Shown here piece after piece: positions 1 through 22,283 of a stretch of 29,779 nucleotides of DNA; positions within the stretch are counted from its first letter, which is position 1; the number at the start of each line of letters is the position of its first letter. The stretch lies in IMG/VR virus record IMGVR_UViG_3300032321_000815, positions 1 through 29,779 of that record; one strand, 5' to 3'. The position numbers were made by a program, and so were the translations under genes. Under the pieces are notes generated by a model, which saw only the letters and a list, made by a program, of their open reading frames with translations, did not search any database and had not been told where the DNA came from. Source of the DNA: a virus (lineage: Duplodnaviria > Caudoviricetes).

Positions 1-88
1 CTTTCCAGTGAATCTCGTACGCGACCGGCTGAGAACCAGCGGATGCAGGAGACGGCTCGGCCTCCCGTTTGGTGTTGTCATCGCTCAT
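1..88 (-). CDS. Small hypothetical cassette-type gene, 5' part only (runs off the left edge)
   Basis: ATG at 88-86 with AGGAG upstream; translates MSDDNTKREAEPSPASAGSQPVAYEIHWK; start lies inside attC-like site 1. Confidence 0.6.
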   Translation of the reverse strand, partial: MSDDNTKREAEPSPASAGSQPVAYEIHWK

Positions 89-119
89 TGTTCGCCGCTC
101 CTGATCCTGCGTGTTCTCA
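30..119 (+). mobile_element. attC-like integron cassette recombination site 1
   Basis: R'' TGAGAAC (30-36), 5-nt spacer, L'' GATGCAGG (42-49) ... L' CCTGATC (100-106), 6-nt spacer, R' GTTCTCA (113-119); one unpaired base in L'' and a second unpaired A in AG-A-CGGC vs GCCGCT; 90 bp. Confidence 0.8.
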
Positions 120-344
120 GCCCAGCCGATCAAGCAATCCCCGAACCACTCGCCCCGTTCTCTCCATCGCCCGGTAGCAAGCGTCGGCCTCAATCGCCAG
201 CAAAACCTCCCGCTCATCGGCGGTGAGCCTGAGCATCACAATTTTGTCACGCAGCCTCTCGTTGTCATGGATGAGCGCCCACGGTGGTCGCTGAGAACCA
301 CCGTCTACACCAGACGGCTTGGCTTGCTCTTGCTGTTCGCTCAT
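117..344 (-). CDS. Hypothetical protein (75 aa), reverse-oriented gene of a putative cassette
   Basis: ORF bounded by the two attC-like sites; stop codon in R' of site 1, start codon in the loop of site 2. Confidence 0.75.
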   Translation of the reverse strand: MSEQQEQAKPSGVDGGSQRPPWALIHDNERLRDKIVMLRLTADEREVLLAIEADACYRAMERTGRVVRGLLDRLG

Positions 345-383
345 CTTTCTCTACTCGCTCGCCGGTGAGACTGATCGTTCTCA
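292..383 (+). mobile_element. attC-like integron cassette recombination site 2
   Basis: R'' TGAGAAC (292-298), 5-nt spacer, L'' TCTACACC (304-311) ... L' GGTGAGA (364-370), 6-nt spacer, R' GTTCTCA (377-383); extra base at L'' position 4; 92 bp. Confidence 0.75.
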
Positions 384-686
384 CCTGTCACCCATCGCCA
401 CCGATCGCCGCGCGAGCCACTCCGCCTGGAGCGCCTCGAAGTAGACACACCAGACGATGTTCGCGTCCTTGCCGTGCCGATCAAGTAGGACCTTCCGAAG
501 GACCTCGAGCTTCATGCAGGCCGCGTTCGTGAACTTCTCGGTGAACGAACACCGCAGGTACGTCGTCGGCGGGTCGGCCTCGGCGAACGTGTCGAGGAAG
601 ATCTGGCCCGGGGCGTGTTTCCACCCGCCAGTCTCGTAGACATCGCGGCAGGCCCGCTGGAGCTGCTCGGCCGTGAACGTGGTCAT
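381..686 (-). CDS. Hypothetical phage protein (101 aa)
   Basis: ATGA overlap with the upstream replication gene; stop codon inside R' of attC-like site 2. Confidence 0.75.
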   Translation of the reverse strand: MTTFTAEQLQRACRDVYETGGWKHAPGQIFLDTFAEADPPTTYLRCSFTEKFTNAACMKLEVLRKVLLDRHGKDANIVWCVYFEALQAEWLARRSVAMGDR

Positions 687-1540
687 GTGGCGGCCTCCTG
701 TGACCTGATCTGCTCCGCGAGCCGTTTCTTCGTCGCCTCGAACGCCGCGGCGTCGCTACCCGACCAAGCCTGGGCAGGCGGACGGTCCTCCTGGCCGCGG
801 AATCCGCCGCGGGCCGGCGCGTGGTCCCGCGGGTTGTCGAACTGGCCCCCGAGGACCTTGTCGACGAAGCCAGCGGTCACGAGCTGCGGCAGCGTCACCG
901 GGTCGCGGAAGTATCGGCACCGCGGCAGGGCCTCGATCGCCGCCAGGGCCTTCGCGTACCAGCCGGGCTCGGCCAGCCGGTCGGCGGCCTTGTCGGGCGG
1001 GTCGGGCAGATTCCACGGGCGGCCCTTGCCGGCCTTCCAGGCCTTCCGCAGGGCCTCCCAGTCGCCCGGCTCGGGGTCTCCCTGCGCAGCCGTCCCGGGG
1101 GAAGAAGAAGAACTTCTCTCTCCTCTCTCTCTGGCGCGCGGCGCCCCGGCCGGGGGCGCGTCGCGCCCCGGCTGGGGGCGCTTAGCGCCCCCGACCTTGT
1201 CGACCTGGTGCCGGACGGTCGCCATGGCCCTGGATTTAGCGGCTTTTGAGAACCTGGCGTCCCATCCGGGGATACCAACGGTCCCATTTTCCGCGTCGAT
1301 CACGAGCCAGCCGACCTCCTGCACCGCGTACCAGAACGCCTCGTCGCCCCCGCAGACCTTCGACAGGAGCCGGAGCGACATCCGGGCCGACCCGTCGGAG
1401 CTGTTCAGCGAGGCCCAGGACCAGAGCATCGCCAGCCGGCCGACGATCGTATCGGCAGCCAGGCCGGTCCTGTCCGCCAGCTCGAGGACCTCTGGCTTCT
1501 GGGACAGGCAGCAGTCCAGTGGAATCCATTCACCGGCCAT
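683..1540 (-). CDS. Putative phage replication initiator protein
   Basis: N-terminus MAGEWIPLDCCLSQKPEVLELA...VGRLAMLWSWA resembles phage replication initiators; low-complexity central linker contains iteron-like repeats; lies downstream of SSB and helicase. Confidence 0.65.
   Translation of the reverse strand: MAGEWIPLDCCLSQKPEVLELADRTGLAADTIVGRLAMLWSWASLNSSDGSARMSLRLLSKVCGGDEAFWYAVQEVGWLVIDAENGTVGIPGWDARFSKAAKSRAMATVRHQVDKVGGAKRPQPGRDAPPAGAPRARERGERSSSSSPGTAAQGDPEPGDWEALRKAWKAGKGRPWNLPDPPDKAADRLAEPGWYAKALAAIEALPRCRYFRDPVTLPQLVTAGFVDKVLGGQFDNPRDHAPARGGFRGQEDRPPAQAWSGSDAAAFEATKKRLAEQIRSQEAAT
1101..1193. repeat. Putative replication origin: iterons plus a purine/pyrimidine-skewed tract
   Basis: GCGCCCCGGC(C/T)GGGGGCGC at 1141-1159 and 1163-1181, partial copy at 1185 (22-bp period), next to GAAGAAGAAGAACTTCTCTCTCCTCTCTCTCT at 1101-1132. 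Confidence 0.55.
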
Positions 1541-5872: not shown

Positions 5873-6119
5873 TTTCGATTCCTTTCGTCGTCATGGATTC
5901 CGCGAACTCGATCACGGCGATCAAGTGGTCGCGGCCGTAGTGGTTGTGGCCGTAGGCCTTCTCCGGCTTCGGCAGGTGAGCGATCGCCGTCCTGATCTCG
6001 TAGCGCGTCATCCGGTAGCCGGCGGCTTGCGACGCGTCGACAAGGTCAGAACATCGGAACCAGTCGCGGTCGTGGTCGCCGCGGAGGCCCGAGAACGTCA
6101 GGTGTTCGAGGATGGTCAC
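5865..6119 (-). CDS. Hypothetical protein (84 aa)
   Basis: GTG start overlapping the ATPase stop (GTGA) with GGAGG RBS. Confidence 0.65.
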   Translation of the reverse strand: MTILEHLTFSGLRGDHDRDWFRCSDLVDASQAAGYRMTRYEIRTAIAHLPKPEKAYGHNHYGRDHLIAVIEFAESMTTKGIENA

Positions 6120-7117
6120 GAGGCGACCTCCTCGACTGGGTCGATTTGCTTGTGCCGATCGTTCAGACGGTCGGTGAGCTGCGACCACTCGTCGGCCGTG
6201 ATCTGGTCGGTCGAGACCAGCTCGTCGAGCCGGTTGCCGATCTTCCCGAGCGTCCGCACGTTCGCCGCCTGGGCGATGAACAACGCGATCTGAGCGTAGA
6301 GCGGCAGCTCCTGTGTCTCAAACTGCTCAACATGCGCCACCGTCAGGCCTGGGGCGACAGCCTTGACAGATTTGGTCAAGGGTCGGCCATCCCCGTTCAG
6401 ATTGGCTGCCGGCTCGGCCTTCACGGCCTCGCCACCCGCAAGCCATTCGGCCAGCCTCTTCCCCGTCTCGGCCGTGATCGGCTTCGGGTCTCCGCCGAAG
6501 ATCCCTGTCCGATCCTTCGATACGGTCGCGTAGTGGCCGTCGTGGACCAGGTCAAGAACGGTCGTGAACTCGTACTCCAGGCCGTCGCGGGCCTCGAGCT
6601 TCATCCCGAGCTTTGTCACCTTCTTCCGACCGTGGTCCTCGACCTGGGCGGTCTCGGTCTTACTGCGGCCCGTGCAAATCACATGGGCCGACGACCGCAG
6701 GATCGCGTCGACGAATGCCCGCCACCGAGGCGTGATCACTGAGAAAGCCGACCAGGTGTTCCCGCGGAACTGTGCCTTCGCGATGTCGTCGACCAACTCC
6801 AGGCACCCGCCCTTGCCGCTCCAGCAGTGGGTGACGGAGTCGATGACGATCACCTCGTAGCCCGCGGCCTCGGCCCCCGAGATCGCCTCGACGTACCTCT
6901 CCGGCGTGAACGGCGGCTTCAGGTCGATCACGTCGAACTCGTGCAGCTCGTCGTAGAGGTCGCTCGACCCTTCCTCGGTGTCGATGACGACCGTCTTCCC
7001 GCCGAGGCCCTTCGCCAGGAGCAGGGCTCCGAACGTCTTCCCGCCGCCGCTCGGGCTGGTCAGCAGGATCCGGAGCTTCGTTGCCGATCGCTTCGCCTTC
7101 CTGATGGAAATCGTCAT
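6116..7117 (-). CDS. AAA_24 / Sak4-like phage recombination ATPase
   Basis: Walker A SPSGGGKT, VIDTE, Walker B VIVIDS, YEFT..LDL and KDRT motifs. Confidence 0.85.
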   Translation of the reverse strand: MTISIRKAKRSATKLRILLTSPSGGGKTFGALLLAKGLGGKTVVIDTEEGSSDLYDELHEFDVIDLKPPFTPERYVEAISGAEAAGYEVIVIDSVTHCWSGKGGCLELVDDIAKAQFRGNTWSAFSVITPRWRAFVDAILRSSAHVICTGRSKTETAQVEDHGRKKVTKLGMKLEARDGLEYEFTTVLDLVHDGHYATVSKDRTGIFGGDPKPITAETGKRLAEWLAGGEAVKAEPAANLNGDGRPLTKSVKAVAPGLTVAHVEQFETQELPLYAQIALFIAQAANVRTLGKIGNRLDELVSTDQITADEWSQLTDRLNDRHKQIDPVEEVAS

Positions 7118-8204: not shown

Positions 8205-8259
8205 AGGATAAACACGTTATCGTGAAATGGTCAAGAGGGAATCCAGAAAATCGTGAAAT
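8205..8259 (-). promoter_or_regulatory. Putative promoter with operator-like direct repeats
   Basis: TTGACC (8234-8229)-N18-TATCCT (8210-8205); ATCGTGAAAT at 8219-8228 and 8250-8259, CGTGAAATGG also at 8058-8067. Confidence 0.45.
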
Positions 8260-8290
8260 CCCATGGTTCAGGCCGGAAAGACGGGCTTCG

Positions 8291-8536
8291 TCAGTCTTGC
8301 TGGGTGCCCTTGCGTGGCCGGCCGCCGCGCTTTTTCTTGGTCGCGGAGGCTTCCTTGTTCCGCTTCTTGATCTCGTGGAGGAAATAGTAGACCCGCCTGG
8401 GCGACTCCACGATCTTCGTCAGCTCTCCGCGTCGGCCCCAGTGCCGAATGTTGCTCGGGTCGATGTCGAGCAGCTCGCCCGCCTCGTCTGCGGTCAGCAC
8501 GGGCTTGCGGGTGCCTGGGTCGATGAACACTGCCAT
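8291..8536 (-). CDS. MerR/excisionase-like HTH protein with AT-hook-like tail
   Basis: VLTADEAGELLDIDPSNIRHWGRRGEL; C-terminal KKRGGRPRK; divergent from the integrase across attP. Confidence 0.75.
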   Translation of the reverse strand: MAVFIDPGTRKPVLTADEAGELLDIDPSNIRHWGRRGELTKIVESPRRVYYFLHEIKKRNKEASATKKKRGGRPRKGTQQD

Positions 8537-8570
8537 ACCTCGAAGGTAGTCGGGCCAACCTCCGAATCAA

Positions 8571-8599
8571 CCGGCCGGCGTTTGCCTTCGCCGGGCCGG
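8571..8599 (-). terminator. Putative terminator hairpin downstream of the tRNA-like att core
   Basis: CCGGCCCGGCG-AAGGCAAA-CGCCGGCCGG followed by TTGATT on the minus strand. Confidence 0.4.
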
Positions 8600-8628
8600 C
8601 TGCGGAGAGTTGGAGATAGGGAATGTCG

Positions 8629-8662
8629 AGTGGAGGCGAGGGGAGTCGAACCCTCCCCTCGC
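8629..8662 (-). mobile_element. Putative attP core: 3' end of tmRNA/tRNA-Ala (T-arm plus acceptor strand)
   Basis: Minus strand GGGTTCGACTCCCCTCGCCTCCA; perfect 10-bp inverted repeat GCGAGGGGAG (8636-8645) / CTCCCCTCGC (8653-8662) around a 7-bp spacer; immediately upstream of the integrase. Confidence 0.75.
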
Positions 8663-8719
8663 GTGTGTGATGGCATTCAGTACACTACAAGGCATGGAAG
8701 CCATGAAAGGAAGAAAGCC

Positions 8720-9637
8720 ATGCCGATGCCGATCCGCGATCTATTCGATCGCTACACCGTCCTAAAGAGGCTCGACTCGAAGACCGTCTCGCTCTACTCA
8801 CAACTCGCTGACCGACTCGACCGATTCTTCGGGCGACCGGCGACCACGTCCGACCTGGATGATCTAGCCGTGAGCCGGTATCTCCGTTGGCGAACCGACA
8901 CGCTGGGGTTCCGCGGACGACTGCCGTCGCCGGCCACCGTGCGGAAGGATCAGAACATGATCCAGGCTGCGTGGAGGTACGCGGCCCGTAAGAGAATCGC
9001 ACTGGAGTTTCCCGACCTCGCGCCCGTGAAGGTGCCGAAGAGGATCCCGACGGGCCGGGCCTACACGATCGCCGACGTGTCAGCGTTGGTCCGCCGCGCC
9101 AAACGTCGATACGGGAAGACTGGCGGCCTGCCGTCGTCCTGGTGGTGGTCGACGATCATCTACGCCGCAGTCACGACGGGCGAGCGGTTCACCGCCCTTT
9201 CGAGTGTCCGCTGGGCCGACGTGGACCTCGAGCGGCGTCGGATCATCTTCCGAGGCGAGAACAGAAAAGGACGGACGCGAGACATCGAGCGGCAGATCAC
9301 CGCCGAGCTTGCCGACATGCTCGCCCAGCAGCGACGCGGACCTGGCGACCTGGTCTGGCCGTGGGACCGCCGCAGCCGCAGCCAGTGGGCCTCGCTCCAG
9401 GTTCTGTGTCGGACGGCTGGCGTCCAGTATCGAGGCTTCCACGGGTTCCGCCGGACGGCCGCCAGTTACGCGGCCCTCATGGGCGGCCGGGCCGCGGCGA
9501 CGCGGCTCCTAGATCACTCCGACCCTAATCTCCAGGCCGTCTACGTTGACCCGTTGATCTGCCCGAGCGAGGAGAGCTCTTGCTCGGCGTTGCCGCCGCT
9601 CGACCTGGAGGAGAAGGCCCCGACCCCGGCGGTCTGA
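8720..9637 (+). CDS. int: Tyrosine recombinase / phage integrase (305 aa)
   Basis: Catalytic set TGER, RKGR, FHGFRR, LDHS, AVY; ATG at 8720 with purine-rich RBS. Confidence 0.9.
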   Translation: MPMPIRDLFDRYTVLKRLDSKTVSLYSQLADRLDRFFGRPATTSDLDDLAVSRYLRWRTDTLGFRGRLPSPATVRKDQNMIQAAWRYAARKRIALEFPDLAPVKVPKRIPTGRAYTIADVSALVRRAKRRYGKTGGLPSSWWWSTIIYAAVTTGERFTALSSVRWADVDLERRRIIFRGENRKGRTRDIERQITAELADMLAQQRRGPGDLVWPWDRRSRSQWASLQVLCRTAGVQYRGFHGFRRTAASYAALMGGRAAATRLLDHSDPNLQAVYVDPLICPSEESSCSALPPLDLEEKAPTPAV

Positions 9638-21196: not shown

Positions 21197-21516
21197 GATC
21201 CGCTCATACTGTTCAGCCACCGAATCACGAGGGCCTGGACGATCGCCGAGATCGCCCAGACGAGGATCAACGTCATAAAGGCCATTCCGCATTGTTCGGC
21301 GTAGACGGTCCTGACACGCCGCTCGACGCGGCGTCGGATCGCGTCGACGTGATGATCGCACCAGCCGGCGGCGAGCTCGCCCTCGACGGCGTCGAGCTGC
21401 GACAGGGCGACGCGGACGAGCGCGTCGCACCGCTCGCGGCCGAGCATCGACCGCCGCAGCGGCCGATCTGCCAGGGCCTGCCAGACTTCCTCGCGAGCCT
21501 GCTCGAGGTCGGTCAC
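21193..21516 (-). CDS. Hypothetical protein with C-terminal TM helix (107 aa)
   Basis: GTGA coupling; FMTLILVWAISAIVQALVIRWL. Confidence 0.65.
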   Translation of the reverse strand: MTDLEQAREEVWQALADRPLRRSMLGRERCDALVRVALSQLDAVEGELAAGWCDHHVDAIRRRVERRVRTVYAEQCGMAFMTLILVWAISAIVQALVIRWLNSMSGS

Positions 21517-22283
21517 GGTTGCACCTCGCAGAGCGTCGCGACCGGTGCCTTCCGGTCGGCCTCGGCCAGGAACAGCGCTATCCGCGTCGAGCAAGATCCG
21601 ATCGTCCGGTTCCGGGCGGCCCCGAACAGGACGCCGGCCAGCTCTCCGGCCTGGTCGAAGATCGGCCCGCCTGAGTCGCCATGCCGGGCAGCGCCTTCGA
21701 GCTCGACGAACTGGGCGGGGTGTTTCCGCGTGGGCGACCCGTAGTCGGTCACCTTCCCCGTTTGCTCGCGGTAGACGCCGGCCGGACCGTAGCCGGCAAT
21801 CGTCAGCGGGTCACCGAGCCGCGGGGCCTGGGAGGCGATCGCCACGGGCTCGGCGTCTGGCCTGCCGACGACCAGGGCCGCGAGGTCCCAGTCCTGGTCC
21901 CACGCGACAACGCGGGCCCGGGTTGTCAGCCCGTCCGGGAACGACACGTCGACCGCGTCCCGGTTGCTGCGGACACAGTGCCACGCGGTGAGGACTAGGC
22001 CCGACGTGCCACTGACGCGAACGAGAACGCCGCTACTGCATTCGAGCGACGCTCCGACTCCGCAGACGACGCGGCAGACGGACGGCCGCGGCTGGCCCGG
22101 CTTTCGGTCAGGAATACTGCTAGTTTTTTCTGACGAAATGTTGACGGCCGTGCCTGTGCCCTGGCAGGCCTGGCACGGATAGAACAGCGGCACCCGGCCG
22201 ACGGTCCGCGTACCTTGGCAGACGCCGCAGTCAGCCGCGAGGGCTGACGCCGCGAAGATCATCCAGACGATGGCGGATCGCAT
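21513..22283 (-). CDS. Secreted trypsin-like (S1) serine protease
   Basis: LTAWHC, DLAAL and GDSGGP triad motifs; signal peptide ending ALA; two CxxCxG repeats. Confidence 0.9.
   Translation of the reverse strand: MRSAIVWMIFAASALAADCGVCQGTRTVGRVPLFYPCQACQGTGTAVNISSEKTSSIPDRKPGQPRPSVCRVVCGVGASLECSSGVLVRVSGTSGLVLTAWHCVRSNRDAVDVSFPDGLTTRARVVAWDQDWDLAALVVGRPDAEPVAIASQAPRLGDPLTIAGYGPAGVYREQTGKVTDYGSPTRKHPAQFVELEGAARHGDSGGPIFDQAGELAGVLFGAARNRTIGSCSTRIALFLAEADRKAPVATLCEVQP

Follow-up and report, generated by a model that had tools for sequence, protein, structure and literature searches.

What are two imperfect palindromes resembling integron attC sites doing in the early operon of a phage, and whose recombinase might act upon them? 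These questions are raised by a virus record of 29,779 bases, which was analyzed in its entirety and is referred to below as the window. Its contig starts at base 1, a mere 29 bases to the left of the first palindrome. Matches to Pfam and PHROGs identify the virus as a temperate tailed phage and, on the minus strand, an early operon whose products include a replication initiator, a helicase and an annealing protein of the Sak4 type. An earlier, sequence-only reading of this DNA had likewise located the array in a phage early operon; both sites lie at the severed left end of that operon. The features on which the argument rests are the following:

1 to 113, plus strand: partial next cassette, whose gene runs on the minus strand from 88 to beyond base 1 and starts inside site 1
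30 to 119, plus strand: attC site 1, 90 bp, with R'' at 30-36, L'' at 42-49, L' at 100-106 and R' at 113-119
114 to 377, plus strand: gene cassette of 264 bp, from the G^TT of site 1 (G113^T114) to the G of site 2
117 to 344, minus strand: 75-aa cassette gene, with its ATG (344-342) in the loop of site 2 and its TGA stop in the R' box of site 1
292 to 383, plus strand: attC site 2, 92 bp, with R'' at 292-298, L'' at 304-311, L' at 364-370 and R' at 377-383
381 to 686, minus strand: 101-aa gene, upstream in the operon, whose TGA stop (383-381) is part of the R' of site 2
683 to 1540, minus strand: replication initiation protein, a landmark for the place in the operon at which an array is present or missing in relatives
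6116 to 7117, minus strand: Sak4-like single-strand annealing protein (phrog_124, E 7e-9)
8222 to 9637, plus strand: tyrosine integrase of phage type, not an integron integrase (profile and alignment searches)
minus strand: terminase, portal, capsid and tail genes (Pfam and PHROGs)

The integrase frame, given as 471 aa, opens with a GTG, and its family matches begin at residue 136; its true start may lie downstream of that GTG. A gene for a trypsin-like serine protease (21513-22283) is situated between those for the prohead protease and the major capsid protein. The replication protein found weak matches alone, in 5 of 401 Planctomycetota genomes, and promoter and terminator scans gave results near chance.

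We scanned both strands for attC geometry, namely R'' ending in AAC, 5 nt, an 8-nt L'' with base 4 looped out, a 7-nt L', 6 nt and R' beginning with GTT. The window yielded exactly two matches, both on the plus strand and each with seven of seven R pairs and seven of seven L pairs; no such match turned up in 100 dinucleotide-preserving shuffles, which averaged 0.1 matches (at most 2) at the 6-pair level. Thus, the two palindromes to which the sequence-only reading had ascribed full attC geometry were recovered with their boxes as described, and its finer points likewise hold: a second unpaired A at the equivalent place in both sites (A52 and A314, each 22 bases past the start of R''); L boxes that differ between the sites yet pair internally, the changes in site 2 being compensatory; and R boxes that depart from the RYYYAAC/GTTRRRY consensus while keeping AAC/GTT and complementarity. 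Because the chromosomal sites of hosts beside intI deviate from that consensus likewise, only the AAC/GTT triplets, rather than the full R boxes, are taken as defining, as they are in the account of attC in PMC5371416. A close variant of site 2 occurs in another phage (L248), and a single low-depth contig (4.89) carries changes at 305-309 that destroy the L pairing of this site.

In terms of predicted folding, the minimum-energy structure of site 1 is the attC fold, with a probability of 0.75-0.84, and that of site 2 differs from it, the attC fold having a predicted probability of 0.12-0.13; the median probability of the recombinogenic fold over 235 phage sites is 0.60, and values above 0.1 are regarded as high by Loot et al. 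2017 (PMC5371416). The extrahelical bases of the bottom strand are T-N6-C in site 1 and T-N6-T in site 2, neither being the commonest T-N6-G. The former is a pair excised well by both IntI1 and IntI3, and the latter is not among the pairs named in the consulted portion of the same work (Larouche and Roy 2011, PMC3053210). Both sites share with canonical and class 1 attC sites the R''-L''-L'-R' hairpin, the unpaired central spacer and the two extrahelical bases six apart; they differ from them in their R boxes and in the gene that they bound, which in the canonical case lies on the top strand for expression from Pc. Rfam returned no match for either site. With two attC sites close together and no intI nearby, the locus is a CALIN as defined by Cury et al. 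2016 (PMC4889954), who also define the IntI-specific domain and name the inverted-integrase layout; the intI gene of a complete integron is lacking from the window.

The sequence-only reading missed the orientation of the cassette gene and the translation signals within attC, as well as the attI-like site of relatives and the second, off-GTT route of shuffling described below. The 5-nt spacer and the 8-nt L'' come first on the plus strand, which is hence the attC top strand; since the genes are on the minus strand, the cassette gene is antisense to the usual layout, in which a top-strand gene lies upstream of its own attC. Cassette genes must face with Pc according to Nivina et al. 2016 (PMC5027507), and orientation is not discussed in the accessible portion of PMC8618304. 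In agreement with the previous description of a 264-bp unit with exactly one gene, the interval from G113^T114 to G377 holds the 75-aa frame. A plus-strand frame of 85 aa (111-368) was considered as the cassette gene and rejected as a shadow frame upon comparison with a homolog: synonymous changes account for 6 of 11 changed codons in the minus frame as against 2 of 11 in the plus frame. The same arrangement recurs in the partial neighboring cassette, as site 1 contains both a Shine-Dalgarno-like AGGAG (98-102, overlapping L') and the ATG (88-86) of the gene to its left. Neither the 75-aa nor the 101-aa protein belongs to a family in Pfam, PHROGs or NCBIfam, and an Atlas search with the proteins of the cassette locus gave no usable feature match and weak structural look-alikes.

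Sites of this family are not peculiar to the window. The family pattern matches 53 stretches in bacterial genomes, mostly of Planctomycetota, and at least 137 stretches among the matches listed in viral contigs (an estimated ~230), the bare R-box pattern matching ~4,100 stretches; the geometry scan misses the published TJE1 sites, so divergent attC sites escape it. A replication-gene relative is present in 63 loci, several of them ending near that gene; 15 of these carry family sites, always downstream of the gene and in the orientation seen in the window. Bacterial arrays of the family adjoin IntI genes, and 4 of 5 such genomes have an IntI above the TIGR02249 cut-off. The sedentary chromosomal integrons of Planctomycetota have attC sites of the same family, with GAAC/GTTC R boxes and lengths of 88-92 nt, and a G at L'' position 4 is seen in 91 of 99 cassettes of the bacterial set and in 117 of 120 from phages. 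The 5- and 6-nt spacers and the looped base 4 are kept, and the loop is variable, across sites of 49 to 93 nt. The sites at 30-119 and 292-383 are thus members of an attC family found in chromosomal integrons of Planctomycetota; an attC model for Planctomycetes is listed in Ghaly et al. 2021 (PMC8352920).

Adjacent sites delimit 275 cassettes, of which 220 are unique: 120 viral (from 57 loci, some of them parts of the same contig), 99 from the bacterial set and the one in the window. The longest open frame is on the bottom strand in 97 viral cassettes and on the top strand in 22, with one tie; in the bacterial set, these numbers are 27 and 72. Before the chromosomal counts, nine loci (10 cassettes) were set aside from the bacterial set: five with phage hallmark genes (L191, L196, L204, L205 and L233), three short contigs lacking decisive markers (L185, L190 and L208) and one of mixed character (L217). 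Defining a reversed cassette as one of at most 650 bp, with a bottom-strand frame that covers half of it and stops within 12 nt of G^TT, we find 82 of 98 in viruses as against 0 of 53 in chromosomes (Fisher p 9e-27, the cassettes not being independent); a long top-strand frame is also present in 41 of the 82. Across all 106 reversed frames the stops cluster at two offsets, shared by 52 and 27 frames, and an in-frame ATG lies within the loop in 55 of 68 reversed cassettes with long sites. Phage cassettes further differ from those of Planctomycetota integrons in their lack of an intI, in their median length (363 versus 620 bp) and in that their arrays point against the promoter that would express them. 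A Pfam family is recognizable in 16 of the 106 frames: 12 DUF551, two DNA methyltransferases, one HTH_17 and one zinc ribbon. The methyltransferase genes (L267:5084-6172 and L269:497-1201) are likely anti-restriction cargo. In certain phage arrays (L130, L133, L137, L262 and others), sites with these boxes are as short as 49-58 nt, and the genes following them start outside the site.

Were such arrays built by IntI, the bases after G^TT would belong to the next cassette and pair with the R'' of that cassette. Neighboring R' boxes differ for 90 phage cassettes, and in 73 of these the preceding R' is the better partner of R'', as against 9 in which the cassette's own R' is, and 8 ties; for chromosomal cassettes, it is the preceding R' in 60 of 69 and their own in 7 of 69. 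The test is conservative because site calling favored own pairing. The window itself is uninformative here, its two R' boxes being identical. We read this preference as the mark left by crossover at G^TT. Five homologous cassette pairs were found among 99, and they behave in a comparable manner: the next cassette differs after the 3' GTT in all five (6-16 of 24 identical), and four have 26-27 of 27 bases identical directly after the 5' G. The attC sites that homologous cassettes carry are themselves often different (10-19 of 20).

A comparison of the window locus at 90% likeness with contigs from 6 of 20 listed runs provides a glimpse of variation in natural samples. Contigs in three other runs, from three studies, join 376/377 to 111/112 and thereby skip the 264 bp, with short sides (21-30 nt) of a kind that may derive from other organisms. 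The best of them (X9, 275 nt) has 27 identical flank bases, followed by an attC like site 1 with 12 differences and a different gene body; the junction therefore holds another cassette instead of recording excision of the 264-bp one. A different attC arm at 376 is found in X2. These contigs suggest that the cassette adjoining the 101-aa gene varies at the 376/377 junction.

Not all variation falls on these junctions. Breakpoints at 227-228, inside the 75-aa gene, recur in L331, X2, X4 and X7, and the last 36 codons of the gene recur in an L331 cassette gene with a different front half and a different attC. An LT-x-x-ER motif is common to 23 of 106 cassette proteins, and a C-terminal module of ~35 residues (LT-x-x-ER ... 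LRGLL-x-R) is shared by the window (117-228), L331, L145, L183, L262 and others, with differing front halves and no Pfam family for the module. On a larger scale, a module of one detected attC, four genes and an attI in L123/L124 constitutes a 1,126-bp insertion relative to L126; it lies (L123:2731-3856) at a 3-base TGA overlap at a gene end (L126:2153-2155) rather than at GTT. Recombination by IntI at a secondary site was weighed as the origin of this insertion and rejected, its ends not lying at GTT. Hence, homologous or illegitimate recombination also acts on these arrays, the Sak4-like protein being a candidate for the homologous off-site shuffling. The sequence-only reading had proposed a shuffleable array of small accessory genes with units exchanged at G^TT and had named breakpoints unrelated to GTT as evidence against it: the R'' pairing and the change of neighbors uphold the exchange, and off-GTT breaks do occur, at 227-228 and at the TGA overlap.

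The arrays of relatives also bear on where cassettes might be inserted. At their top-strand start they display a conserved attI-like motif, which ends in an L box, five bases and GTT, with direct repeats upstream. A matrix built from 41 rows, two of which were attC arms included by mistake, and applied at a score of at least 14, places it on the expected side for 31 of the 49 arrays (the training set did not include 11 of the 31) and on the opposite strand for one; among the 63 loci with a replication-gene relative, it accompanies 9 of 15 arrays and 2 of the 48 other loci. An exact form of the pattern, used solely for the IntI search and the blast database, matches four viral stretches. The best matrix score in the window is 5.6, and the attI of this phage would lie beyond the contig end, in the missing part. 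As for the earlier expectation that the array extends past the left edge, the relatives' arrays alone speak for it, the window contig itself ending at base 1; an exact 26-base search of metagenome contigs for a left extension found none, and, when the 75-aa and 101-aa genes served as queries, one of 48 candidate stretches matched the former, weakly, and none of 5 in viral contigs matched the latter.

The same motif is found behind host intI genes. In the family of a freshwater Pirellulales genome (G005), 76 of 176 genomes encode an IntI, and of 33 intI loci, 17 have the motif no more than 450 nt behind intI and on its strand, none has it on the opposite strand, and it was not picked in the remaining 16; the matrix also missed the attI of seven intI regions in four other Planctomycetota genomes (L389-L395). 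In 4 of 5 checkable host arrays, the bases after the motif's GTT pair with the R'' of the first attC, which argues that the motif marks a working attI. In many integrons of the freshwater Pirellulales family (L396-L430), intI is followed downstream, on its own strand, by attI and the cassettes. Another attI-like type, which has an inverted repeat, was noticed by eye in phages L237, L284, L167, L289 and L304, as well as ~430-440 nt upstream of divergent intI genes in hosts L405 and L408, a hint that phages match two host IntI clades. Integron attI sites are mostly specific to their own integrase (PMC8946536). The terminase large subunit of the window is 74-76% identical to proteins in 3 of the 176 genomes of this family (10 matched at E 1e-60); four aligned contigs match the phage's genes, and this host link rests on binning. 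Taken together, the terminase, attC and attI matches point to a freshwater Pirellulales bacterium as the likely host. SOS control of the host intI was considered and found to be unsupported, given that LexA in Planctomycetes fails to recognize the usual box (PMC3108266).

Traffic in the opposite direction is suggested by phage-type cassettes within chromosomal integrons. In one genome (G545), ABC transporter, rhodanese and ROK genes lie beside intI (L420/L462), and a reversed DUF551 cassette with a phage-type site (L420:393-821, contig G545:C92) is the first at the chromosomal attI behind intI. The mixed locus L217, from a Cyanobium contig with psbP, recR and intI, holds three reversed cassettes with matched ends between host cassettes; one of these shares 92% identity with phage L248 across 353 nt, the identity beginning directly after G^. 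Among 102 host loci, only these matched, besides attC-sized matches and one of 108 nt (L228). Misassembly may lie behind both captures, though their junctions fall on G^TT. The three reversed phage-type cassettes of L217 (9667-10712) are followed by a duplicated mazEF cassette, and the locus suggests capture of cassettes across phyla. Two further bottom-strand frames are seen in an AT-rich part of the Cyanobium array (L217:8371-9133), and not all the reversed genes there may stem from the same phage family.

In light of these observations, we consider it probable that Planctomycetota-type attC sites bound a reversed cassette at the end of a phage array without an integrase of its own, which is likely shuffled at G^TT by a host IntI acting in trans. 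As far as sequence and comparison with relatives and likely hosts can establish, this reading is secure in the geometry of the sites, the reversed gene, its start codon inside one site and its stop in the R' box of the neighboring one, as well as in the crossover signature, the relatives' attI-like site, the same motif behind host intI and the phage-type cassettes in chromosomes. The mobilization by a host IntI that the sequence-only reading had favored is supported by the attI match, the host IntI, the captures in integrons and the lack of an IntI in the viral loci searched. Alternatively, the sites might be attC by descent and now be mainly portable modules of ribosome site and start codon and patches of homology, reshuffled by the Sak4-like protein with IntI acting rarely or no more, a loss proposed above all for site 2. 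The mosaic junction at 227-228 in four independent sequences, the recurrent LT-x-x-ER motif, the swapping of attC arms between like cassettes, the whole module inserted off GTT, the weak predicted fold of site 2 and the phage's annealing-protein gene would all sit well with such a scenario. However, we deem it unlikely since homologous recombination leaves unexplained the pairing of R'' with the preceding R' (73 versus 9), the retention of an attI-like site matching that of the host and the precise capture in chromosomal integrons.

Given an incomplete genome with a tyrosine integrase, one might instead propose that the sites are recombined by an enzyme of the phage, be it this integrase or one encoded in the missing part. 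This is highly improbable: the integrase neither matches TIGR02249 nor aligns meaningfully with host IntI (E 0.19), and a profile of 24 host IntI proteins, whose best bacterial matches score 247-563 bits, finds no match in the window and never exceeds 21 bits across 205 viral loci (1.42 Mb of partial genomes, the window included). As the sequence-only reading implied, the phage's own integrase is not an IntI. Finally, the ribosome site and start codon within stem and loop might tempt one to see in the palindromes a mere resemblance to attC and take them for RNA hairpins or dispersed repeats by which translation is regulated. Yet, the same site family adjoins intI in bacteria, the loop differs between sites but the spacers and the looped base 4 do not, and Rfam offers no match; with the crossover signature and the captures in integrons largely refuting it, the chance of this explanation is close to negligible.

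IntI recombines the folded bottom strand of attC with double-stranded attI. Under the preferred reading of host IntI acting on phage sites, the chromosomal enzyme would excise cassettes and insert them at the phage attI. With the array pointing against the operon, this attI would be at the transcription-distal end, where new cassettes would join. The attC of each reversed cassette would supply a ribosome site and start codon, and the cassette's first bases a stop, and the phage promoter would probably keep any cassette order expressed; these genes are also reshuffled by homologous recombination where modules are shared. A bolder extension, which we regard as distinctly doubtful, is that freshwater Planctomycetota phages keep a mirror-image cassette pool behind a copy of the host attI and commandeer the host IntI, with host captures yielding an acquired antisense defense: the host cassette promoter would transcribe captured cassettes as antisense RNA, which would cover the attC ribosome site common to many phage early genes.

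Clusters of attC sites in phages have been published previously: a survey of 10,705 phage genomes by Qi et al. 2023 (PMC9892861) yielded 17 CALINs, with 5 of 6 tested phage attC sites recombining with IntI1. As in the window and its relatives, these clusters comprise at least two attC sites without intI and small genes, some encoding methyltransferases. In TJE1, the one of the 17 that we compared, the tested bottom strands are minus and the genes plus, which is the usual layout; in contrast, window-type genes are reversed and start inside attC, and relatives of the window carry a host-type attI. The accessible portion of that paper contains no description of reversed cassettes or a host-type attI, and a literature search of titles and abstract openings, with subscription journals mostly outside its coverage, found no reversed phage cassettes or phage attI without intI. 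Within these bounds, the reversed cassettes and the host-matched attI appear to be new; the window is a short and incomplete example with one strong and one weak site.

These arrays point to site-specific recombination as one way in which early operons of phages acquire their mosaic rows of small accessory genes, whereby a phage could carry attI and cassettes alone and use the IntI of its host. All parts are short and suited to standard attC x attI assays. The reversed design indicates that attC sites can double as translation starts, which bears on how cassettes arise. The captures in integrons of the Pirellulales family and of Cyanobium point to gene flow from phages to chromosomal integrons, in one case apparently across phyla.
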